A stretch of 64,000 bases of DNA from Escherichia phage naam, in sequence record MN850630.1; one strand, written 5' to 3'. Below the pieces are notes generated by a model. It worked only from the letters and a program-made list of their open reading frames with translations, was not told where the DNA came from and ran no database searches. Positions 11,197-28,580 of this stretch are shown here, piece by piece. Position 1 is the first letter of the stretch. Every line of letters begins with the position of its first letter. The position numbers and the translations under genes are program-made.

Positions 11197-11225
11197 CCCT
11201 GCCCGAAAGGGTGGGGCATTTTTGT
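11197..11225 (+). terminator. rho-independent terminator (same cassette as 1061)
   Basis: GCCCTGCCC-GAAA-GGGTGGGGC + ATTTTT after SSB-like gene. Confidence 0.6.
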
Positions 11226-13959: not shown

Positions 13960-14205
13960 ATGAACAAAGGGTGGACATTTGTAGACGGCGTTGAAAACAT
14001 GCCTCTAGGAAAGTATATTGTAGCCATGGCAGATGAGAATGGCAAGGTTGATTTCGGAGCTTGCGAGATTGTTCTTGCAGGATCTGGTGACCATGTGCAC
14101 AAAACTGGGATAATTAACGGTCATTTCTACTTTGATTACAACCCTGTTGTGGCGTATATGGCTATGCCAGAGTTAGAGCTCCCAAAGGAGGGTGCAGATG
14201 TTTAA
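13960..14205 (+). CDS. hypothetical protein
   Basis: 81 aa, CAGGAGA RBS. Confidence 0.55.
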   Translation: MNKGWTFVDGVENMPLGKYIVAMADENGKVDFGACEIVLAGSGDHVHKTGIINGHFYFDYNPVVAYMAMPELELPKEGADV

Positions 14206-14395
14206 GCTTAAATCTGCATGGAACATCGCTGTGGGGGACGAGATCCGCATCCCAGGTGGAAAGACCATTATGAAGATATCACGTATCGAGTATGAAGGTG
14301 ATCGTGTATTTCATATCTTTGCAGAAGATGGTCGAGAAATTTATATACAGGCAGGCTCTCATATCTATATCCATAAGAAAGGGGACGACAAATGA
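14192..14395 (+). CDS. hypothetical protein
   Basis: 67 aa, GGAGGG RBS. Confidence 0.55.
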   Translation: MQMFKLKSAWNIAVGDEIRIPGGKTIMKISRIEYEGDRVFHIFAEDGREIYIQAGSHIYIHKKGDDK

Positions 14396-14724
14396 CAGAG
14401 ATCATCGTTTCAACTGCAGGGTATGTATTCCTGACAATCATTGCGTTGGCTATTCTGGTGGCGGTGTATGGATTTGTTATCCTGCCTATTCTTGAGACAT
14501 TTAGCTTGTGTCGGTGTTGGAGAAAAGCTTACGGACCACAACCGTGGAAAGACTGGTTTCATTTGGTGCGTATAGCGTTCTCTTATGCCTATGATCACTC
14601 CAGCAGTGCATGCGTAACCGGGTACCATGCCTACAACTGGAACTGGGAAGGGCTGGGGAGATGGACTGTTACAAAAACTATACCCTTACGGTTGTATAAA
14701 GGAAAGAACACACTGGGAGCCTGA
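14392..14724 (+). CDS. putative membrane protein
   Basis: 110 aa, hydrophobic N-terminal helix, AAGGGG RBS, ATGA overlap. Confidence 0.5.
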   Translation: MTEIIVSTAGYVFLTIIALAILVAVYGFVILPILETFSLCRCWRKAYGPQPWKDWFHLVRIAFSYAYDHSSSACVTGYHAYNWNWEGLGRWTVTKTIPLRLYKGKNTLGA

Positions 14725-14759
14725 TATTTTAAGTTATCAGGTTGCCAGAGATCAGGAGG

Positions 14760-15260
14760 ATTTCTAAAATGGATTTCCTCCTTTTGATATTTTACCTACC
14801 AGGATATTTTAAAATCCTTAGAAAATCAGAAAATGGATCGAAAACTAAAATGGATTTTTCAGAGCAGGCACGACGAGATGAACCACTCATCCTATCGTCT
14901 GCACCATATTCCAGACCACCATTACAGATTTCCCGCACATGCTCACACCCTTCTACTAGAACTTCCCCCACTTACCCTTGACCTTTTATAGTAATAATCC
15001 AACCACTACCTTGAAGTTGTGGCGCAGCTTTCCAAGTACTCGATCTGTTTTTCGTTTCAAAGATTGAATTTTCTGAAAATTTTTCTCGATAAATTTCTCA
15101 GTACTCGATCTGTTTTTCGTTTTCTGAATCGGATTTTCTGGAAATCGTTCCGGCTCTCGACCTGAAATTTTTGGGGACGAAATCGATTTTTCGTTTTCAG
15201 AAATGGATTTTTAAAATTTCTATATGGGAATATTTTAGTGGATACTATTTTATAGGAAAT
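14760..15260. repeat. AT-rich non-coding region with iteron-like direct repeats and palindromes
   Basis: AAATGGAT(T/C) four times; 23-nt direct repeat AGTACTCGATCTGTTTTTCGTTT at 15038 and 15100; palindromes ATTTTCTGAAAAT, AGGATATTTTAAAATCCT. Confidence 0.6.
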
Positions 15261-15358
15261 TGTTACGGAGGGTAATTAGCGTGCTAATTAAATTTATTAA
15301 ATGCGAGGAGTTCTCATTTAGAATTTTGAATGATAATCATTCTCGTTTGCAGAATAAC

Positions 15359-15400
15359 GGGCAGGCCCGGTGATTGTCTCCCGGCCCCTGTTGCCCCGGC
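15359..15400. repeat. GC-rich conserved hairpin element, copy 1
   Basis: GGCAGGCCCGGTGATTGTCTCCCGGCCCCTGTT; conserved core GGTG(A/G)TTGTCTCCC. Confidence 0.55.
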
Positions 15401-15498
15401 TTGTTATTATAGTATCACACAGGACAAAGAAGGCAAGGATTTTTTGCATAAATTTTTAAATGATAATGATAACCGTTCTCATTTTATGCAGCGCCCAT

Positions 15499-15535
15499 CC
15501 CCGGTGGTTGTCTCCCCCGTCACCGGTGCCTGCCG
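15499..15535. repeat. GC-rich conserved hairpin element, copy 2
   Basis: CCGGTGGTTGTCTCCCCCGTCACCGGTGCCTGCC; stem CCGGTG/CACCGG around TTGTCTCCC. Confidence 0.55.
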
Positions 15536-15737
15536 TCCTTTCGATAGGTATATTGTGCCACCTGGCGGGGCCGCTGTCAACACCTTTTCAAAAAATTTTT
15601 CTAACCTGATGCGCTAACCGTTGCAACCTGGCGGGGCCAGCCTGGCAGGACCTAACTGACCAGGTGGGAGAGGGTGAAATCTTGCAAACCTGGTAGGCCC
15701 ATGCTGTAGGGTAAACAATTGAAGAGGAGGTACAAAA

Positions 15738-15980
15738 ATGAAAGGTAATGCTACTCACCTGGGAAATGTAGCGATTAATGACGCTGAGGCTATCACCCTG
15801 GTTGAAAAGGCTATGGCGGGAGCGTTGGAACATAAAGAAGAGTACGAAAAAATGATGGTTAACCTGGCAGGGGCGGCGGCTGGAGAATTCTGCCCAAAAA
15901 ATAATTCTAACCAATGGTTGACAGCTCGGATAGTTCTGTTATTCTTATCCTCGCAAGGTGAACAACACCACACTAATTAA
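15738..15980 (+). CDS. hypothetical protein
   Basis: 80 aa, GAGGAGG RBS. Confidence 0.55.
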   Translation: MKGNATHLGNVAINDAEAITLVEKAMAGALEHKEEYEKMMVNLAGAAAGEFCPKNNSNQWLTARIVLLFLSSQGEQHHTN

Positions 15981-15997
15981 CAGAGAGGATAAAAATC

Positions 15998-16195
15998 ATG
16001 AACGCCTACGGAATTAAAGTACGTCGCAACACTCGCCAGGCCGTCACCGATCAAATGGTTTGCCAGGTGGACGTAACCATCAACAACGGGCAAGGCCTTT
16101 ATAAATTCCGTCGCGGTCAGAGCTATACCCGGCAACAGCTTAATCGTTGCGCCCTGACAAAAGGCCAGATCAACCACTGGTTTAATAAAAAATAA
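15998..16195 (+). CDS. small basic protein
   Basis: 65 aa, R/K-rich, AGAGGA RBS. Confidence 0.5.
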   Translation: MNAYGIKVRRNTRQAVTDQMVCQVDVTINNGQGLYKFRRGQSYTRQQLNRCALTKGQINHWFNKK

Positions 16196-16198
16196 GTA

Positions 16199-16227
16199 TT
16201 GACATATAGTCCGACACCAAATACACT
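16199..16227 (+). promoter_or_regulatory. sigma70-type promoter (TTGACA-17-TACACT)
   Basis: Read directly upstream of 16260 gene. Confidence 0.5.
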
Positions 16228-16259
16228 AAAAGCACAAAAGACACTAAGAGGATAAAATC

Positions 16260-16658
16260 ATGAAAACCACTACCTTTAATTTTGATAATGCGGACTTTTC
16301 TTTTTCTGATGTCAAGAACTGCCGCCGTGATCGTGGATTCTACAAGGCTTATAATCTGGTTGGCCTGGACGATGACAATAATTTGCACGAAGTAGCTGAG
16401 ATCCGGTATTATGCCGCCGCCAGCGGGAACACTCACTACTGCGTGTTTTGGATTCACGACAACAAGAACAATAAGTACGGTTATACTGGCGGCAAGGCGA
16501 GCGGTCACGGTTACGATAAAGCTAACGCAGCACTTGAGAGCGCATTAAATGCTATGGGGATCACTGCCGACGGCTGGATCTACGAAGAAGAGTTTTTGTC
16601 GGCACTTGCTGACCACCTGGGCTATAAAAAACACATTGTAACATGCGCCCACGAATAA
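16260..16658 (+). CDS. hypothetical protein
   Basis: 132 aa, AAGAGGA RBS. Confidence 0.6.
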   Translation: MKTTTFNFDNADFSFSDVKNCRRDRGFYKAYNLVGLDDDNNLHEVAEIRYYAAASGNTHYCVFWIHDNKNNKYGYTGGKASGHGYDKANAALESALNAMGITADGWIYEEEFLSALADHLGYKKHIVTCAHE

Positions 16659-16664
16659 AAATCA

Positions 16665-16692
16665 TTGACACGCTGCAAAATTTAAGTAAACT
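16665..16692 (+). promoter_or_regulatory. sigma70-type promoter (TTGACA / TAAACT)
   Basis: Read directly upstream of 16741 gene. Confidence 0.5.
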
Positions 16693-16740
16693 AGACACAA
16701 AAGGCGGGAATGTTTCCCGCCAGCACAAAGGAAAAAGATC

Positions 16741-17136
16741 ATGAATAAGAACGTACGCCGCATCATGAACGAACTGGCAAACGATGAAAAAATTATTGAT
16801 ATGCATTTGGTCAACATTTGCCGCCGTTGTGTAACATATAACAACCGCGCCGCAAAAGCGCGTGAGATGAACGCAAAAGGCACCTTAAAGCCCTTTCAGG
16901 TGGTTGTAAAATCTATAACTAGCGCAGCAGGCCAGGCGCAGGACCACAACAACGAGAGCGCTAATATTGATCCGTCTTACGTAATGAAACGGATCCGGAC
17001 TTGCAAGAATAAAGAGCAGGTATATAACGTCATAGATTGGCTGGACTCCCTGGGCGATGTGGTTTACAATAGGTTTTCTGCAGCTATCGAGATCCAGCTT
17101 GACAGATTGGACGGGAAAGTACTAAAAACTTATTGA
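16741..17136 (+). CDS. hypothetical protein
   Basis: 131 aa, AAAGGAAA RBS. Confidence 0.6.
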   Translation: MNKNVRRIMNELANDEKIIDMHLVNICRRCVTYNNRAAKAREMNAKGTLKPFQVVVKSITSAAGQAQDHNNESANIDPSYVMKRIRTCKNKEQVYNVIDWLDSLGDVVYNRFSAAIEIQLDRLDGKVLKTY

Positions 17137-17138
17137 GT

Positions 17139-17184
17139 TTATTTTTAGATGGCCTTGACACCAGGGCCATCAATAAAGTAAACT
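17139..17184 (+). promoter_or_regulatory. hairpin-embedded promoter element, copy a
   Basis: TTATTTTTA-GATGGCC-TTGACACCAG-GGCCATC-AATAAAGTAAACT; -35 TTGACA inside a 10-bp stem, TAAACT -10-like. Confidence 0.5.
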
Positions 17185-17216
17185 AACCACAGTTGAGCGG
17201 AAAAGGAGGCTTAAAG

Positions 17217-17336
17217 ATGAGCACTACACGCCAGCACACAAAGGTAACCATCATCGTTTGCATCATTGGGTACATCCTGGCGCAAATGTTGATGGGTAGC
17301 GCCAACGGTGTCGCAAAATTTTTCTTAAACTTTTAA
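17217..17336 (+). CDS. small membrane peptide (39 aa)
   Basis: AAAGGAGG RBS 6 nt before ATG; hydrophobic core; under track length cutoff. Confidence 0.4.
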   Translation: MSTTRQHTKVTIIVCIIGYILAQMLMGSANGVAKFFLNF

Positions 17337-17364
17337 TTGACAAGCTAACTTAAATCGATATAAT
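17337..17364 (+). promoter_or_regulatory. sigma70 consensus promoter (TTGACA-16-TATAAT)
   Basis: Read directly upstream of 17416 gene. Confidence 0.65.
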
Positions 17365-17415
17365 AAGCACATAAACGGGAAAACTTCCCAGAACACACAA
17401 AAGGAGAAAAACACC

Positions 17416-17757
17416 ATGACTACTATGACCGCCTCAGAAAAAGCTATGCAGATCGCTGAACTGAAAAAACAGATCGCAGACCTTGAGAATAAGATCGATA
17501 ACTTTGAAATCGACGAGGACAAGTACGACGAAAACTATGATGAATGGTTAGACGAGATCTACGGCGAAATTATGATCGGAAACATTTCTTTTCTTCCGTC
17601 GCGTATCCTCAAGGAGCTAGATCCTATCGCTTACCGCTGCGGATTTAGCGACTACATCGACAGCCTGGATATTGAGGACGATGAAGAATACCAGGAATTA
17701 CAGACAGAGTTAGAAGAAGCAAAAGAAGAGCTTGCGGAGCTGGAAGAAAACGAGTAA
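17416..17757 (+). CDS. hypothetical acidic coiled-coil protein
   Basis: 113 aa, AAGGAGAA RBS. Confidence 0.6.
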   Translation: MTTMTASEKAMQIAELKKQIADLENKIDNFEIDEDKYDENYDEWLDEIYGEIMIGNISFLPSRILKELDPIAYRCGFSDYIDSLDIEDDEEYQELQTELEEAKEELAELEENE

Positions 17758-17759
17758 GC

Positions 17760-17805
17760 TTATTTTTAGATGGCCTTGACACCAGGGCCATCAATAAAGT
17801 AAACT
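17760..17805 (+). promoter_or_regulatory. hairpin-embedded promoter element, copy b
   Basis: Identical 45-nt element to copy a. Confidence 0.5.
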
Positions 17806-17846
17806 TTATACTGTTAACACTGAACTAATGCATAGGAGTTAAAACC

Positions 17847-18092
17847 ATGGCAGCACTAATCACCAAATATTATGCCCCTACCAACACCAAAAGCGCCCGT
17901 ATCATGGTAAAAGGCTTCGGACGTAAAAAGGTGTACACCTGGGATTATGCCTTAGACACGGAAGACAACTACACCAACGCGATGACCGATTTTATTAATG
18001 ATCTGAACACGCGGATCTTGACAAATTATAAAATTACCGATATTGCCTATATAGGGGAAGGCGGGATCTGTTTTGTCGGTATCGTCAAATAA
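17847..18092 (+). CDS. hypothetical protein
   Basis: 81 aa, TAGGAG RBS. Confidence 0.55.
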   Translation: MAALITKYYAPTNTKSARIMVKGFGRKKVYTWDYALDTEDNYTNAMTDFINDLNTRILTNYKITDIAYIGEGGICFVGIVK

Positions 18093-18103
18093 GCTGTTTT
18101 TTC

Positions 18104-18127
18104 GGTGGTCCTGGTAGCAGGGCCATC
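18104..18127 (+). promoter_or_regulatory. degenerate copy of hairpin element
   Basis: GGTGGTCCTGGTAGCAGGGCCATC preceded by T-tract, followed by TATAAAGATAG. Confidence 0.3.
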
Positions 18128-18167
18128 TATAAAGATAGTTTATCAATACAATGAAAGGAGAAAGTAC

Positions 18168-18521
18168 ATGATCAGCGGGGCAAGTTTTATTATTGGCGCT
18201 ATTGCTACGGCTTTAATTGTAAACAAGATCCAATCTAAAAACGAAAAAGATAGCAACGCCCTTACAGAATACCCGTTTTGGGTATTCAACGACAATGAAG
18301 ACTATATTATCAAGTACAAGAATGAGAAGGGCGACCAGGTAACACCGCGACCGATCCCGGCTTACAAGATGCAAGAAACACTATACCGCCTAAAGGCTGG
18401 AGGCGCAAAAATCGTAGACTTTTGGGGATACGATCACACAGATCAGGAAGTTATAAAGCGCCGTATCCGGGCTATTCAGGCCAATATTGAAGTTAGCAAG
18501 GGGGGAATATATGAAGATTAA
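18168..18521 (+). CDS. putative membrane-anchored protein
   Basis: ATG 18168 after AAAGGAG; N-terminal hydrophobic helix. Confidence 0.55.
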   Translation: MISGASFIIGAIATALIVNKIQSKNEKDSNALTEYPFWVFNDNEDYIIKYKNEKGDQVTPRPIPAYKMQETLYRLKAGGAKIVDFWGYDHTDQEVIKRRIRAIQANIEVSKGGIYED

Positions 18522-18708
18522 TTTTGAGAAGATTGTAAAGCGATCTCATGATTCCGAAGAGCTGCCGGAACGCCGCCAGCGCAACAATAAACTGAATAAG
18601 CCAAAAAGATTTGGGAAGATCTGGCGGAATCATTATGATCGCAAATTACCGGGCCTGCTTTTGGAACGTGAACGACAGGCGGAACGATACCGCCACAAAG
18701 GCAAATAA
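18511..18708 (+). CDS. small basic protein
   Basis: ATG 18511 after AAGGGGGG; R/K-rich 65 aa. Confidence 0.5.
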   Translation: MKINFEKIVKRSHDSEELPERRQRNNKLNKPKRFGKIWRNHYDRKLPGLLLERERQAERYRHKGK

Positions 18709-18716
18709 CAACCAAC

Positions 18717-18742
18717 GCCCCGCCATTGTGCGGGGCTTTTTA
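18717..18742 (+). terminator. rho-independent terminator
   Basis: GCCCCGC-cattgt-GCGGGGC + TTTTT. Confidence 0.65.
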
Positions 18743-18879
18743 TTTCTATCCTACGAATAGCGCCCCTGGTTGGCCCTGTAAGCGCCAAAAAGGCCCCACC
18801 TATACAATCGCCCCCCTTTAACCTGAAAACATCGCTTAGGGCCGTTTTATGGCGTTAAAAATATCATTGACAGTGATTT

Positions 18880-18907
18880 TATTTAAAGCTTGACATCTTA
18901 AACAGGT
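18880..18907 (+). promoter_or_regulatory. sigma70-type promoter (TTGACA / TATACT), second TTGACA 23 nt upstream
   Basis: Read directly upstream of 18950 gene. Confidence 0.5.
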
Positions 18908-18949
18908 TAGCTATACTAACCACATCAAAGAGAGAAAGGAGTAAACGCC

Positions 18950-19210
18950 ATGCGTAAATTAAAAAATTTTGATAAAGTTGATGTTGTCCTGAATAATTTT
19001 TACTACTGCAACAACAAGGCCATTTGGTGGCGTGATAGTTCCACCGATAAAGTTAAAGCTCGCTTTCTCCAAGGGCACTGGCAAGGCCGTCCAGTGATTA
19101 AAATACTGGGGCAACTGGTAGCGTTTAAAAATTGCCGCCGTGTTGATGACGTTGAAGAGATCTTGAACATTTTACGCCACAATAATTTAAAAAATAGTGT
19201 TGACAAGTAA
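18950..19210 (+). CDS. hypothetical protein
   Basis: 86 aa, AAAGGAG RBS. Confidence 0.55.
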   Translation: MRKLKNFDKVDVVLNNFYYCNNKAIWWRDSSTDKVKARFLQGHWQGRPVIKILGQLVAFKNCRRVDDVEEILNILRHNNLKNSVDK

Positions 19211-19227
19211 ATCTCGATAAGTATACT
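19200..19227 (+). promoter_or_regulatory. sigma70-type promoter (TTGACA-16-TATACT)
   Basis: Read directly upstream of 19285 gene. Confidence 0.55.
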
Positions 19228-19284
19228 TAAACACACAGGCGGGAAAACTTCCCGCCACTAACAAAGAAAATAGGAGAAAATATC

Positions 19285-19908
19285 ATGACCACCGTTAACA
19301 TTACCACAGGTTACAATTTATCTTTCGACGTGCTGACCGACGAACAAAAAGAAAAAGCTATTGAAATGGTCCGCGAAAGAGAAGAACACAGCGGGGATAA
19401 TTTTTTTGCAGAAAGTGTAATTGAACACTATAAAGAATATGTCTTTCCAGAGTACGGCCTTGAAGATACCGAAGTACGTTGGTCCGGCTTTTGGTGTCAA
19501 GGCGATGGCGCGTCAATCAGTGCTGAAAACGTGGATTTAGAAAAATTCTTGCGTAAAGTAAAGGCCCTGACCAAGTTCCGATCAATTCGTCACTTGTTCG
19601 GCACAATGCACGATGGCGAGTTATCAGCCAGTGTTGAACGTATCCCGTTTAGCCATTATCATCACGAAAACACAATAGGAGGGTGCATCGATACTAATTG
19701 GCTAGACCTGACCACCAAGCAAGAGGACAAAGTTGAAGAGCTGGAAGAGCTGATCACCGAGACGGTACGGGAGCTATCACGCAAGGTTTACGTAGACCTG
19801 GAGGAGGCCTATCTTGAACAGTTTACTACCGAAAACCTGATCGGCCTTATTGAAGCCAATGATTGGCGGTTTGATGTGGATGAATATGGGGAGATGAGTT
19901 TTTCATAA
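19285..19908 (+). CDS. hypothetical protein
   Basis: 207 aa, TAGGAGAA RBS. Confidence 0.6.
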   Translation: MTTVNITTGYNLSFDVLTDEQKEKAIEMVREREEHSGDNFFAESVIEHYKEYVFPEYGLEDTEVRWSGFWCQGDGASISAENVDLEKFLRKVKALTKFRSIRHLFGTMHDGELSASVERIPFSHYHHENTIGGCIDTNWLDLTTKQEDKVEELEELITETVRELSRKVYVDLEEAYLEQFTTENLIGLIEANDWRFDVDEYGEMSFS

Positions 19909-19998
19909 ATAAAGTGTTGCAATAATCTAAAAACCTGCTATATTAAAAACTCAAGGGGCGAGATGACTTGCCCCCCACAAAACAAAGAGGAAAACATC

Positions 19999-20379
19999 AT
20001 GAAAAACACTACTAAAGCTATTGACACCGTTATGTTTAACCTGGTTACATTCCGTGAAGATATGAAAGATCTTCCACGTGAAACAGTGTGCGACCATATC
20101 GAAAACTATCGCAAACTAATCAAAGAGTTGCCTTTAAAACGTGACCAGTACGCGGCTAACGCTATGCTTAACGCCATGATCAAAAAGATGATCCAGTGTG
20201 ATTTAACTCTGGCCTATGATTATGCAGGCGGTCGTTTTGCAGTATACAATCAGCCCGTGCCCGGTATGAGCACCACCGAAGAATTGCACGCGTTAAATCT
20301 GAAACAAGATGTATGGGATAACATGCCCCGCGTGGTGGTGTGGGCAGAAAGCGGAAAGATTTACGGCGATAATTTTTAA
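19999..20379 (+). CDS. hypothetical protein
   Basis: ATG 19999 after AAAGAGGAAAA, in frame with track ORF 19963. Confidence 0.55.
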   Translation: MKNTTKAIDTVMFNLVTFREDMKDLPRETVCDHIENYRKLIKELPLKRDQYAANAMLNAMIKKMIQCDLTLAYDYAGGRFAVYNQPVPGMSTTEELHALNLKQDVWDNMPRVVVWAESGKIYGDNF

Positions 20380-20389
20380 TCAGGTAACA

Positions 20390-20415
20390 GGCGGCATATT
20401 TGCCGCCTTATTGTT
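20390..20415 (+). terminator. rho-independent terminator
   Basis: GGCGGC-atattt-GCCGCC + TTATTGTT. Confidence 0.5.
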
Positions 20416-20443
20416 AAACAGAACTGCAAAAGAGGTACATAGA

Positions 20444-20815
20444 ATGGAATTTATTATTTTGGCTGTAGTAGTTGCCTTGTTCAACGCCTGGATCGCTGGC
20501 AAGATGGGTAGATCCGCCTTTTTATGGTTTATTATATCTATTTTCCTGGGGGTGGTTGCAACTATTGTACTTGTTATCCTTGCAATTGTTGACAAGGGGA
20601 ATAATAGAAAGGGTAAAGTATTTTCAGACCTGTACGACGCTCAAACATTTGTCAACGCCTACTACAGCGATCTTCCAGTCTCCCTACGTTGCAGCCTTGC
20701 ACAACAGGTTTTCGATGAAGCTAAAACCAGAGATCACGCCCATGAGATTTGTTTAACTGAGGCGGATCGCCTATTTGAGAGGAATAGAAAATATGTGGAC
20801 CAGCCGTTTAAATAA
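20444..20815 (+). CDS. putative membrane protein
   Basis: ATG 20444 after AAGAGG; two predicted hydrophobic helices. Confidence 0.55.
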   Translation: MEFIILAVVVALFNAWIAGKMGRSAFLWFIISIFLGVVATIVLVILAIVDKGNNRKGKVFSDLYDAQTFVNAYYSDLPVSLRCSLAQQVFDEAKTRDHAHEICLTEADRLFERNRKYVDQPFK

Positions 20816-20925
20816 TGCCACGTTAATTAACCCCTTTAGTGAAGATTTGAAGCCAGCCGCCTGGCGGGATGGATTCAATAACGAAAGCTTTATTTTCAGG
20901 CCTGATCTTAAGGAATTTTATAACA

Positions 20926-21051
20926 ATGGATCGAACAACGACAGAGATAATTTTTCTTGTAATGTGCGTGGTGATAATACTCCTGGGGGCCATTGCAAAC
21001 CACGTCACTGCTAACAGGAGGAAAGGGGGAGACGATGACACCCAAGGATAA
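20926..21051 (+). CDS. small membrane peptide (41 aa)
   Basis: Hydrophobic helix then charged tail; AAGGA RBS about 11 nt upstream; alternative frame 20775..21014 not favoured. Confidence 0.35.
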   Translation: MDRTTTEIIFLVMCVVIILLGAIANHVTANRRKGGDDDTQG

Positions 21052-21154
21052 GCCCCGCACCGATAAGGCGCGCCGTGTTATGGTATGGCTTGAGATCATC
21101 GCCCTTGAAATATTGTTAGGCGTAGGGATGTATTTTATCGCTGTAAGTAACTGA
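21035..21154 (+). CDS. small membrane peptide (39 aa)
   Basis: CAGGAGGAAAGGGGG RBS; basic N-terminus then hydrophobic helix; followed by terminator. Confidence 0.4.
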   Translation: MTPKDKPRTDKARRVMVWLEIIALEILLGVGMYFIAVSN

Positions 21155-21168
21155 TAACGGCCCCGATC

Positions 21169-21200
21169 CCTGGGGCCTAACTTTTCAAATTTTTTTCTCC
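21169..21200 (+). terminator. rho-independent terminator
   Basis: GGCCCC-gatccct-GGGGCC followed by T-rich tract. Confidence 0.5.
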
Positions 21201-21294
21201 CTGAGTGTTGCAATCCGATCCAGAATATGGATAATAACAATCAACGGGGAGACACTCCCCACCGCATAGACAAAGTTCCAAAAGGAGAAACAAA

Positions 21295-21495
21295 ATGAGC
21301 AACAATATCCGCGTTATTAACTTCAAAAAAGAAGAAAAAATTGCCGTGCTGATTGACGGTCAAGAAATCTTTAAAGGTGATTATGAAGATCATCAAACGG
21401 CGATTAGTATCACTCGCGTGATTGGTTACCATAATTTTTACCCTCAAGGCGCTGAGGCAGCAGTAAAACGAATTAAAGAGATTGTAGGCCTGTAA
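21295..21495 (+). CDS. hypothetical protein
   Basis: 66 aa, AAAGGAGAA RBS. Confidence 0.55.
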   Translation: MSNNIRVINFKKEEKIAVLIDGQEIFKGDYEDHQTAISITRVIGYHNFYPQGAEAAVKRIKEIVGL

Positions 21496-21498
21496 AAT

Positions 21499-21544
21499 TT
21501 ATTTTTAGATGGCCTTGACTCCAGGGCCATCAATAAAGTAAATT
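21499..21544 (+). promoter_or_regulatory. hairpin-embedded promoter element, copy c
   Basis: Same element, TTGACT variant in loop. Confidence 0.5.
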
Positions 21545-21586
21545 TAAACCCTGTTAAAATAATCAGTGCAAAAAGGAGTAATGATC

Positions 21587-21886
21587 ATGTTTATCCAGGC
21601 TAATAATCTTTATTTCTTTGATGGTCAGATCGTAGACGGCGTGGAGGTGGAAATAACCGGGTGCCCTGGCGGTCAGGTTATGACTTTTCGGAATAATGCC
21701 TTTGATGATTCTCATATCGTTATGAGAATGGAAGTTAGTAAGCTGGATGACAAGAAAACACTTATCGACTATTCCGTCAAAGATCATCCAGACTACCACA
21801 TGATCTATGGTGATTTGTGCATTGTTGACCGTGACAAGGTGAACGGCATTGTTATAGCCATTGTGAACGATGTTTTCTCTGAATAA
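21587..21886 (+). CDS. hypothetical protein
   Basis: ATG 21587 eight nt after AAGGAG. Confidence 0.55.
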   Translation: MFIQANNLYFFDGQIVDGVEVEITGCPGGQVMTFRNNAFDDSHIVMRMEVSKLDDKKTLIDYSVKDHPDYHMIYGDLCIVDRDKVNGIVIAIVNDVFSE

Positions 21887-22110
21887 TTCCGGCAAATGAT
21901 GCAAAATAAGGCCCCTAGCAGGGCCTGCAGCGATATAATCACATAAAGGCTATGCGGTTGCATGGCCTTTATTATTTTAGCGTTACAGCGGCCCCAAGGC
22001 GCTTAAAAAATTTTTAAAGAAGTACTTGCATCAAGTCCTACAATATGGATAATAGGACGTGTCAGGGGGGCGGCCCCCAATCATTAACCGGATAGATAGG
22101 AGTTAAAATC

Positions 22111-22395
22111 ATGGCTATTGTCACCGTTGGCGATGTAGTGGAAATGGAAGCAAAATACTTAAAAGCGGGTATGCATATCCTACGGAATGATCAAGAATTG
22201 TTATTAACGATGGTAGACTATAATCCCGGCCAGGATTATCCAAGCATCGACTACTTTTTTGAGTATGTTGATGAAGAATTGAAAGAGGATGAGACTTATC
22301 AGGGTGAATTCTGCAATTTCTTTTGCCCTGATGAGGTTGTAAAAGTTATCTATCAACCTGGCGTACCTTTCCCGCTGCACGCTATCAATAAATAA
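22111..22395 (+). CDS. hypothetical protein
   Basis: 94 aa, TAGGAG RBS; GC hairpin after stop. Confidence 0.55.
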   Translation: MAIVTVGDVVEMEAKYLKAGMHILRNDQELLLTMVDYNPGQDYPSIDYFFEYVDEELKEDETYQGEFCNFFCPDEVVKVIYQPGVPFPLHAINK

Positions 22396-22457
22396 ACCTG
22401 GCGGGGCCGAAAAGGCCCCCGCCTGAAATTATGAAAAATAAAAAGAGGCAAACTATC

Positions 22458-22688
22458 ATGATGGAACAAATTAAACGCGCTGAGGCTATTAATGGCAATG
22501 TGATCTATTTTGTCAGCAATAACGAAAAAGGCGTACCATATGCGGCGGTAATAGTACAGCCTGACGGCAATTATTGGTTTACTGTATACGGATCTTATTC
22601 TTTCGGGCGTCCGGTGCATGATAGAATTTTAAAAGTAGCGAACCCAACCGGGAAGAATATCACAGCAGAAAAATTTTTTGAAAAATAG
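22458..22688 (+). CDS. hypothetical protein
   Basis: ATG 22458 after AAGAGG. Confidence 0.5.
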   Translation: MMEQIKRAEAINGNVIYFVSNNEKGVPYAAVIVQPDGNYWFTVYGSYSFGRPVHDRILKVANPTGKNITAEKFFEK

Positions 22689-22716
22689 TTGACATGGCCT
22701 TATAAGACTGTAGAAT
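22689..22716 (+). promoter_or_regulatory. sigma70-type promoter (TTGACA-16-TAGAAT)
   Basis: Read directly upstream of 22764 gene. Confidence 0.55.
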
Positions 22717-22763
22717 ATAAATCAAAGGGGCAAGCCCCATCAACGGCAAAGAGGATAAAAATC

Positions 22764-22943
22764 ATGGCTATTATTGCAAAGACTGAGATCGTAGGCTTAG
22801 ATTCTATTCTCCTCGCATATGAGGAAGCTATAGAAATGTATGTGGTTTCCTATGGTGAGTATATCCGTGAATATAAATCTATTGATCTGGCTTTTGAATG
22901 TTATATTCGCCAGGTTAATAAAGCGTACGATGATTATCGTTAA
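22764..22943 (+). CDS. hypothetical protein (59 aa)
   Basis: ATG 22764 after AAGAGGATAAAA, downstream of promoter. Confidence 0.45.
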   Translation: MAIIAKTEIVGLDSILLAYEEAIEMYVVSYGEYIREYKSIDLAFECYIRQVNKAYDDYR

Positions 22944-23034
22944 AATAGTTTGACAACAAACAACCATCTAACAAAGCATAACACATAAGGTGGTAGAATG
23001 ATCCGCCACCTGGAACAAAGAAGAGGTAAACACC

Positions 23035-23280
23035 ATGAAAAGCAATAAAGGTTATAACGGTTACAAAAACAAAACTCATTGGAATGTAAGCCTTTGGATT
23101 AATAACGATGAGTCCTTGTACCGGTTGGCCCAAGGCTTTATTAACGCTAATGCTAATCGTAATGATGCGGCGCGGGATATGATGCTTTTTCTGGAGCTAA
23201 CCGGACAAGATAAGACCCCGGACGGCTTCAAGTACAGCACTACGGCGATCCGTGCCGCGATGGTTGGAATGAAACACTAA
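23035..23280 (+). CDS. hypothetical protein
   Basis: 81 aa, AAGAGG RBS. Confidence 0.55.
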   Translation: MKSNKGYNGYKNKTHWNVSLWINNDESLYRLAQGFINANANRNDAARDMMLFLELTGQDKTPDGFKYSTTAIRAAMVGMKH

Positions 23281-23357
23281 AAGCACATAGCCGCCTTACC
23301 CTGGGGCTGTAGTAGCGGTCCCATGAATAAGGTTACTAACAGAAGAGAATAAACACC

Positions 23358-23462
23358 ATGAAACAGAAATTAATTGATGCGGTGATCCTGGTTATTGCCC
23401 TGGGTATTGGCCTGATTGCAACCATGGCTAATGTGATCTTGTCTTCCAACGGTATCGGGTGA
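23358..23462 (+). CDS. small membrane peptide (34 aa)
   Basis: AGAAGAGAA RBS; single hydrophobic helix. Confidence 0.4.
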   Translation: MKQKLIDAVILVIALGIGLIATMANVILSSNGIG

Positions 23463-23471
23463 GGTTGGCAA

Positions 23472-23687
23472 ATGATCACTAACAAAACAGGCAAAACGGA
23501 ATTTTTACGCAACTTACAGATCGGCAAGCCTGAGATCTGGTATTGCACTAAAACACCACGTGACGAAATGAAAGACTTCACCGCCACGCTGCAACGGGTA
23601 AAGATATCCATCACGCAGAAAAAGGCCTTATTAGTGGTGGAAGGTGAGATCCCCCAAACCGTTGTTATAGTTGAACGTACAGCATAG
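23472..23687 (+). CDS. hypothetical protein
   Basis: 71 aa, GAGG RBS. Confidence 0.45.
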   Translation: MITNKTGKTEFLRNLQIGKPEIWYCTKTPRDEMKDFTATLQRVKISITQKKALLVVEGEIPQTVVIVERTA

Positions 23688-23778
23688 TTTAATTTATACC
23701 GATACCTGAAAATTAACCAACAAGGCATAAACAGGCTGTTACCGCCGCCTTAAACGTAGCAGAAAGAGGATAGACACA

Positions 23779-24063
23779 ATGAAAAAGATGATCGCAGTGG
23801 TTGCCCTGGTTGTTGGACTTAATGCGCCTGTAATGGCTAAAGAGCTGGCAAAAGAGGTTAATCTAACGGATATTCATGCCGTCAATCGAATCGGGGTTAC
23901 TTATCGCTTATGCCTTGCCGCTAAAACTTTTAAGGACGGCACGACAGAGTACTACGGATTCGAGGGTGTCCGGTGCGGTGAACTTGCTCGCGACCTTAAG
24001 GAAGATCCAGACCTGGAGGATCTGCCCATCACCGTAAACGGGAAAACTTACGTAAACCGTTAA
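23779..24063 (+). CDS. putative secreted protein (signal peptide)
   Basis: N-terminus MKKMIAVVALVVGLNAPVMA signal-peptide-like; AAAGAGGA RBS. Confidence 0.55.
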   Translation: MKKMIAVVALVVGLNAPVMAKELAKEVNLTDIHAVNRIGVTYRLCLAAKTFKDGTTEYYGFEGVRCGELARDLKEDPDLEDLPITVNGKTYVNR

Positions 24064-24065
24064 CC

Positions 24066-24200
24066 ATGAGAAAGATAATTATTACCATGGGGATCGTGGC
24101 GGCAATGTTGGCGATCTTTCCCTTTATGGTTAGGTATGTGCTGATTAATGTTGTCCTGGTAGTCAGCGATCTGGTGTTATATATTAACTCATTGTTTTAG
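24066..24200 (+). CDS. small membrane peptide (44 aa)
   Basis: Hydrophobic; weak RBS. Confidence 0.3.
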   Translation: MRKIIITMGIVAAMLAIFPFMVRYVLINVVLVVSDLVLYINSLF

Positions 24201-24208
24201 GCGCGATA

Positions 24209-24400
24209 ATGACAGCGGAAGAAGTTAAAAAAGTACTGGCGGTACTGCGTTATCATAATCATTGCAAGGTGAAGAATGATCCTGATTATCTTGATTCATC
24301 CCTTGAAGAGGATACACTACAAGCCATAAGCAACATGCAAGAATTGCTTAAGCGTATGACAGAGAAAAACCGACCGGACTACATAGGGGGTAAAATATGA
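24209..24400 (+). CDS. hypothetical protein
   Basis: 63 aa ORF; weak RBS. Confidence 0.45.
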   Translation: MTAEEVKKVLAVLRYHNHCKVKNDPDYLDSSLEEDTLQAISNMQELLKRMTEKNRPDYIGGKI

Positions 24401-24708
24401 TCGCTATTACGCCAACCGTTTTAGATTGGTATCGGCAACGCATAGCGCCTCCGCTGGCTATCTTCAAAGATGCGGAAGCAAAACAACGCCGGATCTCAAT
24501 ACATGAGATCATCAACCTTAACGCTGGAGGCACACCATACCGCCCAGGACCTGGCCGTGAGATGGACAATACGTTAGCGATCCTGAAGATACGCCGTAAA
24601 CGGTCCTCCCTTACGCTGGACTCATTACACACAATGCAGCCTCCGTTCCAGGTGACCGGGAAACGGATCGCCAGGTCCTGGACAAAGGCCAATGATCGGA
24701 CCGTATAA
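24397..24708 (+). CDS. hypothetical protein
   Basis: 103 aa, ATGA overlap, GGGGG RBS. Confidence 0.5.
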   Translation: MIAITPTVLDWYRQRIAPPLAIFKDAEAKQRRISIHEIINLNAGGTPYRPGPGREMDNTLAILKIRRKRSSLTLDSLHTMQPPFQVTGKRIARSWTKANDRTV

Positions 24709-24794
24709 ATAAAAGTGTTTTGGTACTGATTTTGGGGTTGACTTGTTCGGCCCCTTTTGCTATTCTTATTAAACGGGCGGCACTTGGGAACAGG

Positions 24795-24817
24795 GGGAGA
24801 CAATCACCAGGCCTGCC
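24795..24817. repeat. GC-rich conserved element, copy 3 (inverted relative to copies 1-2)
   Basis: GGGAGACAATCACCAGGCCTGCC is reverse complement of copy-1 core with one mismatch. Confidence 0.55.
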
Positions 24818-24842
24818 TGTCATATAAGAACTATAAAAACCG

Positions 24843-24871
24843 TTGACATCTGCCATGGGGTGAGGTAACAT
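24843..24871 (+). promoter_or_regulatory. sigma70-type promoter (TTGACA-17-TAACAT)
   Basis: Read directly upstream of 24926 gene. Confidence 0.5.
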
Positions 24872-24925
24872 TTATCTTGAAGGGGCAAAAGTGCCCACAC
24901 AACAACCAGAAGAGAGGAAAACATT

Positions 24926-25198
24926 ATGTCAAGCTGGATTAATCAAGAAGTCGAATCACGTTTTAATGCTATTTGGGATCTCATCGAAAAAGAGGACGGA
25001 ACATCAAGCCCTTATCTCAATAATCTTGAATTCCATTTCGTGGAAGCGATGAACGCAGAACATGATCACGAAGGTGGTGCGGATGAATTCGCTAAAGGAT
25101 ATGGCTTCAACAATGCCAACGAAATGATCGAGGCGGTTGTACTCCAGGCTGAGGAAGATTATCAATTAAAAACGCTTGAATTCTGCCGCCGTAAGTAA
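24926..25198 (+). CDS. hypothetical acidic protein
   Basis: 90 aa, AGAGAGGAAAA RBS. Confidence 0.55.
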   Translation: MSSWINQEVESRFNAIWDLIEKEDGTSSPYLNNLEFHFVEAMNAEHDHEGGADEFAKGYGFNNANEMIEAVVLQAEEDYQLKTLEFCRRK

Positions 25199-25260
25199 TA
25201 AGATAATGACACGGGCCAAAAGGCCCACTAAACAAAAACCACATAAAGAGGAAAAACATC

Positions 25261-25524
25261 ATGAAACGCCTTGATCAGCTCAAATTAGTTCAATATATGG
25301 CTTATCGTGTTCTTGAAGTCCAGAAAGGTAGCAAAAAAGAGGTTTGCGAGAAAGCTTATAAGATCTTCACTCGCAAAAAAGATGACTGGATGCTACGCCA
25401 GACCAAAAAGGCTGACATCTTGGGGTACCTGGAAGAAGAGATCCGCCTTGAAGAGCAAGAAGAGATCCGCCGTAGTGAGGCAGATTATCAGGCAGCTTGG
25501 GAAAACTGGATGAGCAACAAATAA
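25261..25524 (+). CDS. hypothetical protein
   Basis: 87 aa, AAAGAGGAAAAA RBS. Confidence 0.55.
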   Translation: MKRLDQLKLVQYMAYRVLEVQKGSKKEVCEKAYKIFTRKKDDWMLRQTKKADILGYLEEEIRLEEQEEIRRSEADYQAAWENWMSNK

Positions 25525-25590
25525 TACAACAAGTTACGGTCAGGGGGGTAATAAAGCCCCTTGATCGCATAAAAATTATGCCATCTCTGG

Positions 25591-25619
25591 TTGACAGGGA
25601 TCGGCAGTTTTGCTATATT
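25591..25619 (+). promoter_or_regulatory. sigma70-type promoter (TTGACA-17-TATATT)
   Basis: Read directly upstream of 25669 gene. Confidence 0.55.
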
Positions 25620-25668
25620 CTTTTTTGAAGGGAAGTTGTAAGAAAATTAACTAAGAGGTAAAAACACC

Positions 25669-26088
25669 ATGAACATTAAATCTAATAATCCGGCATATAG
25701 CTTTGATAACGCTTTTTGTCACGGTCCGGCGGCGAAAGGATTCGAAATCGATGGTAAACTAATTATTGTCAATGTTGACGGGGAAGAGGTTGCAGTATAT
25801 CCGGTGGCAGACGTAAAAAGCCGTTTACAATGCCGCATGGATGTTACCGCCTATCAGCTTGATCCGGTCCGCATAGTTGCCCTGGTCCTGGAAGAAGAAA
25901 TTAAAGCCATGCACCATAGCAACAGATTTATTGGTGACGCGCAGGATAATATGAAAGTATGCCGCCATAAAGTTAATGAAGTGCTTAAAGAGTACGGCTA
26001 TAAAGATCTTATGATCAAACGTGAGGAAAAATTCCGCTACCGTAACGACCTGGCAAATCGGATTTTTGAAATATACGAATCATTATAA
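25669..26088 (+). CDS. hypothetical protein
   Basis: 139 aa, AAGAGG RBS; last gene of plus-strand block. Confidence 0.6.
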   Translation: MNIKSNNPAYSFDNAFCHGPAAKGFEIDGKLIIVNVDGEEVAVYPVADVKSRLQCRMDVTAYQLDPVRIVALVLEEEIKAMHHSNRFIGDAQDNMKVCRHKVNEVLKEYGYKDLMIKREEKFRYRNDLANRIFEIYESL

Positions 26089-26135: not shown

Positions 26136-28580
26136 GCTCTTCCCCCTACCATAAACGGCCCTACCTGGCAAGTGGAATAATTGACGAGCCATCAATCCTA
26201 CACACTGTACAAACATACATGTAAAATAGCTATTGCATAACCTTTCATTGTGTGGTAGCGGTGCTATTTTTTACCAGTTTTCCTTCCAAAATTGCACGTA
26301 ATGCCGCTATTGCACAAATTTTAACCTGATGCACATCTCCAATATCTTGTCAACAACTAAAAATCTTTATAAGTCATACACTTACACAGCATCGAAAGCG
26401 TGTTCTACGCGAAAAATCGAGTATAACTATAGCCGCCAGATCTCAGAATTCACGTACGCACGCCATTCTATAGCCTGCAAAGTATTTATTCCAACCACAG
26501 AATAACGGAATAGTCAATACCTGCATAAAATAATTATTAGTGTAAACTGCATAACATAAATCAGCTCAGGTGTCAACATTTTTCGTAAACAGTCCGAAAT
26601 TATCACGATGAGTTATCATAAACAGAGAAATCTTTAGTCGTCTAATGTTTACTGTACATTACTATACTGACTGGAATCATTAGATGACTAAGAGAAAGAT
26701 AAGAAATAATTAATAATGTAATTGTTTTACCTGTAACAATAAGGCAACTATGCAAACGAATGGCATGGCGCGACGGAGTCGCGACATAATATAAAAGCAG
26801 TAACCATCACCCCCGTGATAGTTTGTCTGCAATCTATTAATCAGATCATAGTTGCCTTGTATTCAGTTAATCATGACATGATAAGCAAGGCAACTATAGA
26901 TCTTCTAATAGTTGCCCTGCTTTTATATTATGTCATAGAAACACCCGAAGGGGTGACCAAAGGTCACCTGGCATAGCCAGTGAAAGATTATTAACTTGCT
27001 AATAGTTATCATGCAAACGAATGGCATGGCTGATTATCGGTGTGTAAACAGTCAATCATGTAAATGGTTAGCATGTGAACAATCAGAAATGTAAACAATC
27101 CAGTGTGTAAACTAATAGGTGTGTAAAAGTGTCATGTTGTGTCAGTTAGGTCACATTATGTCAGACAAGTTTTTCTCCTCTTTGTCAAGTGCTGCATGAA
27201 AAATTTACAAGCTTGTATGGTAGCATTTTTGCGGCCCTGTTTACATTCAGTGTTGTATGTATAATCCTTGTTGTGTGGGCGTTTAGACGTCTGGACGGTC
27301 AGAAGTCTGCAGGTTAATATCTAATCTATCGGCTGCTAACTATATCCCACACAAATAGTAAGAAATATAATTGTTATGTGCGTAAACAGTAACCCATGTT
27401 ATCAATCCCTGTATGTATCGCCAGTGGTGCGCATAATGGGTATTATGTTAAATTGCCCGTAATGATAACAGTTCTCACAATGATAGGTATTCTCATTCAC
27501 CCCCACAAGATAGGTTGCAAATGTTGTGCCACTGTGTGAACGGCCTGGCCTATTAATTTGCCTCACTGCCTTGATATTTGAGAATTATTATAAGAATGAG
27601 AAGTATTCCCATTTCGTCCGCCTGGCAGCACTCCTGTAGGTCAGGTCAAAATCGTGGTAGAACTAGACCTATCCGGATATTTCTGGCTGACTCTTCAGGT
27701 CTGTGTGGGAAAAGCCAACCTCTCCGGCGGGGCAGGGGGAGGTCAATTAAAAAATTTACGTGGTGTATGAAGCGCTCTTCAGGTAAGGCAGGTATTATGG
27801 GATGAAACCCGCTTCAGGCAATGATATTTGTGGGTGTGATATTTGCTGGAAGGCCAGATATGACGGGACTCCCGGCGGGGCAGGGGTAGTACAGACAGGG
27901 AAAATATGGGGATGTAGTTGGGGAAATTGATCAGACAGGTAGAGTATGGAATATGTTACAGGTATGTTAAATATGGAGGTTGAATATCTGTAGGATTTGT
28001 GTGTAAAATCAAAGACTTAAGGGGTGTTGTGGTATTTTCTATAAATAATTCAAGTTTAATAGGCAATATTTGTCTCTATCCGCTTTGTGTGGTAAACAGA
28101 TTCAGATGAGATTGGTTTACAAGTGTATACATAATATACAAATTAAAGATACAAGAAACCCCCCTCCCCCTTCGGCTACCATTCACCTTTTCCTCTGACT
28201 GGTACTTAAACACTTATTCAGACTCTTCAGGTTATCACCCATATATCATATGGCAGTGACTGGTGTCCTCCGGCCCCTCTTTCGTCACCCGTCCGCTTCG
28301 CCATGCTAATGCCATAGCTAATGGTTCGGTTGTTCACCCTGTTCACTCAGGTGTATCTCTATACCCCTTCAAACCGAAGAGAACAGAAAACCCGAATTAC
28401 TCGGTAAAAGAAAAGAGAAGAACTTAATTTTATCAGGATAGGCAAGAATGTCAAGGCATGACTGCTCACTAAACAAGCAAACAGTCATGTGTGGGAGGTA
28501 AGTGATTGTGGTGGTAGGAAATTTAGTTGAAAGATGTGTTATAGGTGCTTCCAGCACTTTAGCCGGGCAGCTAATTGTGT
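26136..28580. other. repeat-dense non-coding region between convergent gene blocks
   Basis: No convincing ORF; direct and inverted repeats, GTGTAAAC-like motif cluster, GC-rich direct repeats. Confidence 0.6.

Follow-up and report, generated by a model that had tools for sequence, protein, structure and literature searches.

A repeated plus-strand RNA hairpin between early genes of Escherichia phage naam and its similarity to T7-type RNase III sites

The 49-nt repeat and its setting

The stretch of DNA analyzed here, 64,000 nt of Escherichia phage naam (sequence record MN850630.1), which is referred to throughout as the window, contains four copies of a 49-nt element located between cistrons in a plus-strand block of small hypothetical early genes, a block with many near-consensus sigma70 promoters and a few intrinsic terminators. 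Positions 16500–22000 of the window are 94–98% identical to more than 100 complete genomes of rV5-like Escherichia coli myoviruses (genus Vequintavirus), of which phage nom is the best match at 98.4%. The canonical early promoters of the window match the sigma70 hexamers at 10–12 of 12 positions and have a spacer of 16–17 nt, and the open reading frames (ORFs) that flank the element encode small hypothetical proteins with a patchy distribution.

Three of the copies are near-identical, as had been noticed in the initial annotation of this sequence. A 24-nt core, GATGGCCTTGACWCCAGGGCCATC, occurs exactly three times, at 17148–17171, 17769–17792, and 21508–21531, always on the plus strand (none was expected from 100 shuffles), and the full repeat around it is 49 nt long, with copy 1 at 17136–17184, copy 2 at 17757–17805 (98% identical), and copy 3 at 21496–21544 (94%). 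The degenerate copy that had been placed at 18104–18127 does exist, although its extent as a repeat is 18092–18140, with 69% identity; we refer to it as copy 4. The first base of each copy is the final base of the stop codon that ends the preceding gene, namely the TGA of the gene at 16741–17136 for copy 1 and the TAA of the gene at 17416–17757 for copy 2; copy 3 comes after the TAA of the gene at 21295–21495, and copy 4 lies in the middle of an operon, after the stop codon of the gene at 17847–18092. A small gene follows each copy, as had been described, its ATG lying 27–42 nt beyond the element rather than the 30–60 nt first given, and the position of the element relative to the stop codon and the Shine-Dalgarno (SD) sequence is the same in all four copies.

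A motif count had been put forward as a check in the initial annotation. Searched with a covariance model of the element, the window yields these four copies and no others, all on the plus strand, with the reverse strand scoring less than half of the bits; by blastn, 120 phage records, every one a Vequintavirus, have about three copies per genome. The model has no match in the early regions of the Salmonella phage SSBI34, the Klebsiella phage FKP3, and the Serratia phage Kashira, and at the level of sequence the family is therefore limited to the genus. A scan of IMG/VR with CAGGGCCATCNATAAAG returned only two Vequintavirus contigs, the remaining loci being single chance matches, and a search of Rfam in evalue mode over positions 14000–26000 gave only chance matches far under the gathering scores. 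The element is absent from the promoter and terminator tables of the rV5 genome paper and from the terminator annotation of phage EdH4.

Copies 1 and 2 delimit a repeat-bounded cassette of 621 bp (17185–17805, plus strand), which comprises a 39-aa ORF (17217–17336), a canonical early promoter (17337–17364), a 113-aa ORF (17416–17757) whose TAA stop codon meets copy 2, and one copy of the repeat. In phage ECP26 and in an IMG/VR contig (L011) exactly this 621-bp unit is missing, and copies 1 and 2 are replaced by a single chimeric copy, in which the left flank comes from copy 1 and the right flank from copy 2. In rV5_ev146, copies 1 and 3 are absent and the gene content is different. Because copies 1–3 are 94–98% identical over the 49 nt, they appear to act as substrates of homologous recombination.

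A strand-specific two-tier RNA hairpin

The plus-strand RNA of each copy forms the same two-tier hairpin, which is composed of a lower stem, an internal loop, an upper stem, and a tetraloop. The upper stem contains 10 bp formed by GAUGGCCUUG and CAGGGCCAUC, one of them a U·G pair, and it is closed by the 4-nt loop; the internal loop has 2 nt on the 5′ side and 3 nt on the 3′ side, and the A/U lower stem of 7–13 bp is formed by the T-tract pairing with the A-rich segment that holds the putative −10 hexamer, a pairing that had been overlooked in the initial annotation. The annotated stem of about 10 bp agrees with this structure, whereas the annotated position of TTGACA in the loop does not, as TTG is part of the stem and the loop contains only ACA(C). 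In copy 1, the lower 5′ arm occupies 17136–17145, the upper stem pairs 17148–17157 with 17162–17171 around the loop ACAC (17158–17161), and the 3′ side of the internal loop, AAU (17172–17174), is followed by the lower 3′ arm (17175–17184). The upper stem-loop is at 17769–17792 in copy 2 and at 21508–21531, with the loop ACUC, in copy 3. The copy 4 hairpin extends over 18089–18143 on the plus strand, with a 13-bp lower stem and the same 2 × 3 internal loop, and its upper stem-loop at 18104–18127 consists of GGUGGUCCUG, the loop GUAG, and CAGGGCCAUC.

The folding energy of the plus strand is −22 to −28 kcal/mol with z-scores of −5.1 to −7.5, copy 4 having −28.2 kcal/mol and a z-score of −7.5. 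The minus strand folds poorly (z-scores of −1.9 to −2.6), and with DNA folding parameters copy 4 forms none of the structure. A generic sliding-window search for hairpins (at least 17 pairs, free energy of −19 or lower) was rejected as undiscriminating, since many hairpins in coding regions passed it.

Conservation of the pairing was assessed with 51 copies, representing 28 distinct sequences from 15 Vequintavirus sources. Across the 28 distinct sequences, 98.6% of the 560 pair cells are paired, compared with 33–58% when the partners are slid, and none of 500 shuffles reaches this value. Among the four copies of the window alone, 4 of the 10 lower-stem pairs are changed on both sides (double compensatory changes), for example the C>U in the "−10" of copy 3 that is offset by a G>A in its 5′ arm, and all three changes in the upper stem interconvert Watson-Crick and G·U pairs. 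The arms of copy 4 are GGTGGTC opposite GGCCATC, and their pairing survives only as G·U pairs in the plus-strand RNA. In copy 4 and all of its seven distinct variants, TTGACA is replaced by CTGGTA, CTGGCT, CTGGTT, or CTGGTG and a usable −10 is missing, yet both stems and the internal loop are retained. The tetraloop is variable (ACAC, ACUC, ACGC, ACCC, ACUU, GUAG, and others), and the 3′ arm of the upper stem, CAGGGCCAUC, is common even to the diverged copy 4 and is invariant apart from a C-to-U change of its first base in 1 of the 28 distinct sequences. Since the pairing is specific to one strand and the promoter-less copy 4 keeps the fold, the selected feature is the hairpin in the RNA rather than a DNA palindrome, and the repeat is under selection as a plus-strand RNA hairpin.

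Proposed RNase III processing, putative promoter activity, and alternative explanations

Intercistronic processing signals of the RNase III type are well known from phages T7 and T3. Substrates of E. coli RNase III span approximately two helical turns, with at least about 11 bp required between the cut and a tetraloop whose sequence is free, and internal loops confine cleavage to one strand, which leaves a protective 3′ hairpin (Pertzev and Nicholson, PMC1540722). The preferred pairs are U-A/U·G in the distal box (db) and G-C, A-U or U-A, A-U, and A-U or U-A at successive positions of the proximal box (pb), with no G/C at pb2 or pb4 (PMC1540722). All four copies of the element form a helix of about two turns that is interrupted by an internal loop (10-bp upper stem, 2 × 3 loop, 7–13-bp lower stem), and the predicted scissile bond, on the 3′ side of the internal loop, is separated from the tetraloop by the 10-bp upper stem and the first, non-Watson-Crick position of the internal loop, as in the natural T7 site R1.1. 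Copies 1–3 also have U-A/U·G in the distal box at base pairs 2 and 3 from the loop, as R1.1 does, with an A-U pair at pb2 and at pb4 an A·A mismatch that is acceptable, R1.1 having U·C there. The copies are positioned between plus-strand ORFs, downstream of sigma70 promoters. The inclusion of a stop codon in the 5′ lower arm is found as well in T7 R0.5 and R18.5, in T3 R0.5, R4.7, and R18.5, where the annotated stem-loops start at or span the upstream stop codon, and in phage PS3. Sequences of the T7 sites themselves, taken from the phage genome, fold into this shape too.

A covariance model was built from T7 sites only (R0.3, R0.5, R1, R1.1, R1.3, R4.7, and R18.5; n = 7) and run over the whole window on both strands without filters. 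The four copies are its top four matches, at 24.0, 23.2, 21.8, and 20.1 bits, with copy 2 the best, and all four matches are on the plus strand, full-length, and ungapped. The next best match in the window has 15.1 bits, and the best in 65 kb of early regions from related genera has 14.5 bits. In T3, which was outside the training set, annotated homologous sites score 37–64 bits and everything else 14.6 bits or less, and the promoter-containing T3 R6.5, a genuine but divergent site, scores 23.5 bits. The next best match, sub-threshold at 15 bits, is a 13-bp hairpin at 21943–21972 (and at 21931–21982 on the minus strand), AUAAAGGCUAUGCGGUUGCAUGGCCUUUAU followed by UAUUUU, which has the AAGG..CCUUUAU core of the T7 sites; it is terminator-like and might also be processed.

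Alignment of the element to R1.1, which is cut after T7 position 5887, predicts cleavage after 17174 in copy 1, 17795 in copy 2, 18130 in copy 4, and 21534 in copy 3 (..CAUC-AAU|AAAG..). For the T7 sites other than R1.1, the cleavage coordinates were taken to be those of Dunn and Studier 1983. RNase III features are not shown in the T7 records NC_001604 and V01146; the mapping of R1.1 was checked against the base-pair numbering in PMC1540722, and the annotated stem-loops of T3 were used instead.

The promoter proposed in the initial annotation is borne out at the level of sigma70-like hexamers for copies 1–3 and finds no counterpart in the degenerate copy 4, which has neither hexamer and so fails the promoter pattern. 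TTGACA-N18-TAAACT is present at 17155–17184 in copy 1 (putative −35 at 17155–17160, putative −10 at 17179–17184) and at 17776–17805 in copy 2 (17776–17781 and 17800–17805), just as annotated, and copy 3 has TTGACT-N18-TAAATT at 21515–21544 (21515–21520 and 21539–21544) with the same spacing. The hexamers of copies 1, 2, and 3 match the consensus at 10, 10, and 9 of 12 positions, and the spacer is always 18 nt. TTGAC is invariant in copies 1–3, its sixth position tolerating all four bases, and TAAACT is invariant in copies 1 and 2 even where its 5′ pairing partner varies without compensation. Judged from these patterns, promoter activity in copies 1–3 is about as probable as its absence, and a promoter would be at most a second function of three of the copies.

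The explanation that we favor, with confidence only slightly above an even balance, is that the element is a T7-type RNase III site for processing and stabilizing transcripts between early cistrons, that three of its copies double as a weak sigma70 promoter, and that the copies form a recombination module. Host RNA polymerase would read through from the upstream sigma70 early promoters, and the read-through RNA would fold to a helix of approximately 20–23 bp whose 5′ lower arm starts at the stop codon. Host RNase III would then cut once, on the 3′ side of the internal loop (...GGCCAUC-AAU|AAAG...), so that a protective 3′ hairpin would remain on the upstream cistron and the downstream cistron would be freed with a short leader. 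Copies 1–3 would in addition encode, within this stretch of DNA, a sigma70 promoter of weak to moderate strength, whose TTGACN runs over stem and loop and whose TAAAYT lies, after an 18-nt spacer, in the 3′ lower arm, giving a composite processing and promoter cassette that would be analogous to T7/T3 R1, R6.5, and R13 and to the promoter-early stem-loops (PeSLs) of T4-like phages. Recombination between copies 1–3 would insert or delete the small genes that lie between them.

Several observations weigh against this explanation. In copies 1–3, pb1 is U-A and pb3 is G-C, both off the optimum of the minimal T7 substrate, and in copy 4, db2 is C-G (as in T7 R0.5) and pb2 is G·U. The internal loop of 2 × 3 nt is smaller than the approximately 4 × 5 nt of T7, and RNase III could therefore cut both strands, cut weakly, or bind without cutting. 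The U·G in the distal box is not independent evidence, since the −35 TTG paired with CAG yields it anyway, and the near-identity of copies 1–3, loop included, goes beyond what RNase III needs, which implies an additional constraint from a promoter or from gene conversion. The E-values of the T7-only model for the four copies (0.004–0.04) are rough, as covariance-model E-values, and modest. On the promoter side, the 18-nt spacer is unlike that of every canonical early promoter here, which have 16–17 nt and higher scores, and insertions in two natural variants of copy 1 lengthen the spacer to 19–20 nt, suggesting that the putative promoter may be weak or non-functional. Finally, searches of the literature gave no usable transcriptomic, transcript-end, cleavage, or transcription start-site data for any Vequintavirus.

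The PeSLs provide the nearest alternative. They are defined in T4-like phages by a stop codon in AT-rich DNA, followed by a sigma70 promoter, a stem-loop, and then an SD sequence and ATG, and the stem-loop may overlap the −35 box and include G-T pairs (PMC2839356). They flank ORFans, recombination between them leaves single chimeric copies, and one PeSL stem-loop cut lacZ expression as strongly as rrnB T1 (PMC2839356). As sequence patterns, copies 1–3 contain both the promoter and the stem-loop, and copy 4 contains the stem-loop only; the element lies among ORFans in a plastic region, with indel endpoints in the motif (ECP26 and L011). The host lineage of PeSLs is that of T4-like myoviruses and that of the element is Vequintavirus, and the element is therefore at best a PeSL analog and not a member by descent. 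Judged by its anatomy, it fits the PeSL definition save for host lineage and terminator function. It is conceivable, though we regard it as unlikely, that the element is a PeSL-type cassette without RNase III, in which a sigma70 early promoter is combined with a stem-loop that attenuates, terminates, or stabilizes 3′ ends, the likeness to T7 being convergent geometry. Such a role has been proposed for T4-like RB49 and phi1 with the same anatomy (PMC2839356), the chimeric copies and the lacZ result would suit it, and other rV5-like genera have repeated promoter and stem-loop cassettes that correspond to other PeSL subclasses. However, the hairpin is followed by AAUAAAGUAAA on the plus strand and by UAAAAAUAA on the minus strand, with no U-tract either way; the element is not listed by a terminator scan of the window, and an intrinsic terminator was rejected for want of a U-tract on either strand, in keeping with the initial annotation, which had not considered the copies canonical terminators. 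Moreover, copy 4, itself promoter-less, is followed in its operon by two ORFs (18168–18708) without a promoter of their own before the terminator at 18717–18736, so that polymerase presumably must read through the hairpin to reach them. An attenuator or 3′ stabilizer would need neither a covarying A/U lower stem nor a conserved internal loop, and the T7-site model picks out the element specifically.

The remaining explanations are less probable still. The upper stem might be read in its sequence by a phage RNA-binding protein or nuclease or by another host factor, for instance a translational or stability regulator, a proposal that we consider improbable; the invariance of CAGGGCCAUC does exceed the normal sequence requirement of RNase III, and the element is limited to one genus, but there is no candidate protein, Pfam gives no RNA-binding domain in the ORFs flanking the element, and RNase III, supplied by the host, already accounts for the geometry, the placement, and the T7-model score. 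Even less probable, in our judgment, is the proposal of the initial annotation, that of a promoter with its −35 box in a palindromic operator for a dimeric regulator of a co-regulated subset of genes. The 7-bp arms GATGGCC/GGCCATC are indeed perfect in copies 1–3 and overlap TTGACA, and these copies are near-identical over most of the loop as well, but loop position 3 accepts all four bases, the covariation covers 10 more bp outside the palindrome, and copy 4 has no promoter to regulate. Its half-sites have diverged asymmetrically and form no two-fold symmetric DNA palindrome, and conservation follows RNA pairing, including the G·U pairs of the plus strand; a DNA cruciform or operator was accordingly rejected, given the strand asymmetry of folding and the failure of copy 4 to fold as DNA. 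Least credible of all is a functionless dispersed repeat or recombination scar that has persisted in intergenic DNA, which would agree with the few copies, all in a plastic region of accessory genes and involved in indels. Against it, the compensatory changes in two helices and the strand-specific G·U pairs indicate selection on the fold, and the placement relative to the stop codon and the SD sequence is fixed in four of four copies.

If the element is a T7-type RNase III site, it would provide a testable model of how a block of about 20 kb, made up of unannotated early genes, is expressed as discrete, stabilized messages, it would explain the recurrent gene-content polymorphism among Vequintavirus isolates, and it would indicate early-gene cassettes shared between T7-like and rV5-like phages. 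The rV5-like phages are widely used in biocontrol of E. coli O157 and in phage-therapy collections. For annotation, it would serve as a warning that a TTGACA within a hairpin may be something other than a promoter, or something more. A more speculative extension, which we put forward tentatively and consider doubtful, is that a single stretch of 50 nt serves in two ways, as a sigma70 promoter at the DNA level and as an RNase III site once transcribed, and that T7-like podoviruses and rV5-like myoviruses may have exchanged the cassette. In that case, the downstream cistron would receive a near-identical short leader either by initiation, approximately 7 nt after TAAACT, or by cleavage at AAU|AAAG, approximately 15 nt upstream of that start, and the element would be a natural expression insulator as well as a homology patch for swapping cassettes of small early genes.

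Neighboring features and comparison with known systems

The operon that contains copy 4 provides a link to the T7-like podoviruses. Downstream of copy 4, an ORF at 18168–18521 overlaps a 65-aa ORF at 18511–18708, both on the plus strand, and a strong intrinsic terminator at 18717–18736 closes the operon. The 65-aa ORF, which shares 45% identity with T7 gp1.1, is homologous to T7 gene 1.1 (Pfam PF08200, E 1.1e-10), a gene that follows site R1.1 in both T7 and T3 and that has, to our knowledge, no known function. Upstream of copy 4, the 81-aa ORF (17847–18092, plus strand), which has copies 2 and 4 on its two sides, has homologs in early regions of siphoviruses and T7-like podoviruses, and T7-like podoviruses have early-region homologs of both element-flanked ORFs. 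In the Providencia phage PS3, a homolog of the 113-aa ORF is directly preceded by a T7-type hairpin of 36.3 bits whose 5′ arm contains the upstream stop codon and whose loop is adjoined by U-A/U·G. The presence of a gene 1.1 homolog in a 136-kb myovirus points, on sequence evidence, to early-gene exchange with T7-like phages, and this homolog together with the homolog of PS3 gp05 suggests that the cassette may have been exchanged between T7-like podoviruses and rV5-like myoviruses. Copy 3 is followed by a 99-aa ORF (21587–21886, plus strand).

Other repeats and hairpins were observed in the window. A conserved G/C hairpin, GGCGGGAAnnnTTCCCGCC, occurs at 16703–16721, 17376–17390, and 19238–19256, close behind the canonical early promoters at 16665, 17337, and 19200; the gap to the −10 is 8–12 nt, which places the hairpin at the 5′ end of the transcript. 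A nearly identical hairpin, GGCGGGAATGGTTCCCGCC, comes after promoters in phage Kashira (L023, family D1/D4), and the GGCGGGAAnnnTTCCCGCC hairpin is probably a 5′ stabilizer, corresponding to the PeSL subclass with a stem-loop downstream of the −10. At least three direct repeats of about 65 nt (..TACTCGATCTGTTTTTCGTTT..GATTTT..) lie at 15026–15211 in an ORF-poor stretch and are not called by Tandem Repeats Finder; similar arrays are located at the equivalent place in SSBI34 (L021, 8306–8506) and Kashira (L023, 8600–8837). The array is possibly an origin or iteron region, or else the "non-coding" box that the rV5 paper shows. A near-perfect palindrome of 64 nt at 26873–26936 (−29.5 and −29.2 kcal/mol on the two strands), within at least 1.2 kb that has no ORF of at least 70 aa and no tRNA, may be a bidirectional terminator or another boundary between transcription units. 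A pair of 96%-identical canonical intrinsic terminators (GCCCTGCCCGAAAGGGTGGGGC followed by TTTTT; family D20) is found at 1062–1088 and 11196–11222, 10 kb apart. In the sequence records, 17 entries named as Campylobacter phages (MG0656xx; host C. jejuni, several marked UNVERIFIED) are 94–100% identical to E. coli rV5-like phages here and are likely mislabeled or contaminated.

We know of PeSL cassettes only from T4-like phages, and of no report of either PeSLs or RNase III-type signals in rV5-like phages. The element resembles the PeSL cassettes of RB49/phi1, PST/T4, and nt-1/KVP40 in being a repeated intergenic motif that reaches from the stop codon to the SD sequence and ATG, with sigma70-like boxes, a stem-loop over the −35 (as in one PeSL subclass), and G-T pairs in the stems, and in being concentrated among small ORFans, where neighboring copies recombine to one chimeric copy (PMC2839356, PMC4122927). 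It differs from them in its long two-tier helix, the absence of a U-tract, the poor 18-nt spacer, one promoter-less copy, and the presence of four copies per genome, whereas PeSLs, described only in T4-like phages, usually have simple G(n)/C(n) or A3-4G3/C3T3-4 hairpins that are read as terminators.

Repeated early cassettes with TTGAC-type promoters and covarying stem-loops are likewise found in SSBI34, FKP3, and Kashira, although there the stem-loop encloses the −10, lies within the spacer, or comes after the −10, and the two-tier geometry is lacking; these cassettes are matched by neither the element model nor the T7-site model. The repeated early promoter families of SSBI34 (L021, 9938–17240) and FKP3 (L022, 10161–14729), which belong to rV5-like and phi92-like genera, have their covarying stem-loop around the −10 (ATGCCGC-TGTATAATGG-GCGGCAT) or inside the spacer (TTGACA-GGGGCG-GTAAAA-CGCCCC-ATAAT). 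Such hairpins can form only in read-through RNA or extruded DNA, and the families seem to represent PeSL-like cassettes, as yet undescribed, from outside the T4-like phages.

The element is without recognizable sequence homology to the T7 core (ACUC-AAGGUC...GGCCUU-UAUGA), and it differs from the T7/T3 sites in its almost pure A/U lower stem, its 2 × 3 internal loop, and its non-optimal pb1 and pb3; it is also carried by a 136-kb myovirus without a phage RNA polymerase, and the promoter that it would enclose is of the sigma70 type. Like the T7/T3 sites R0.3, R0.5, R1, R1.1, R1.3, R4.7, and R18.5, and also R3.8, R6.5, and R13, it is a two-tier hairpin, with an upper stem of 9–10 bp, a loop of 3–5 nt, a lower stem of 6–10 bp, and an asymmetric internal loop that has at least 3 nt on the 3′ side. 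In both systems, the hairpins are on the coding strand between cistrons, recur as similar repeats within one genome, and belong to early RNA made by the host polymerase. Several sites also overlap or enclose promoters, as T3 R6.5 and R13 enclose phage promoters and the E. coli promoter C overlaps R1, and the U-A/U·G beside the loop of the element is that of R1.1.

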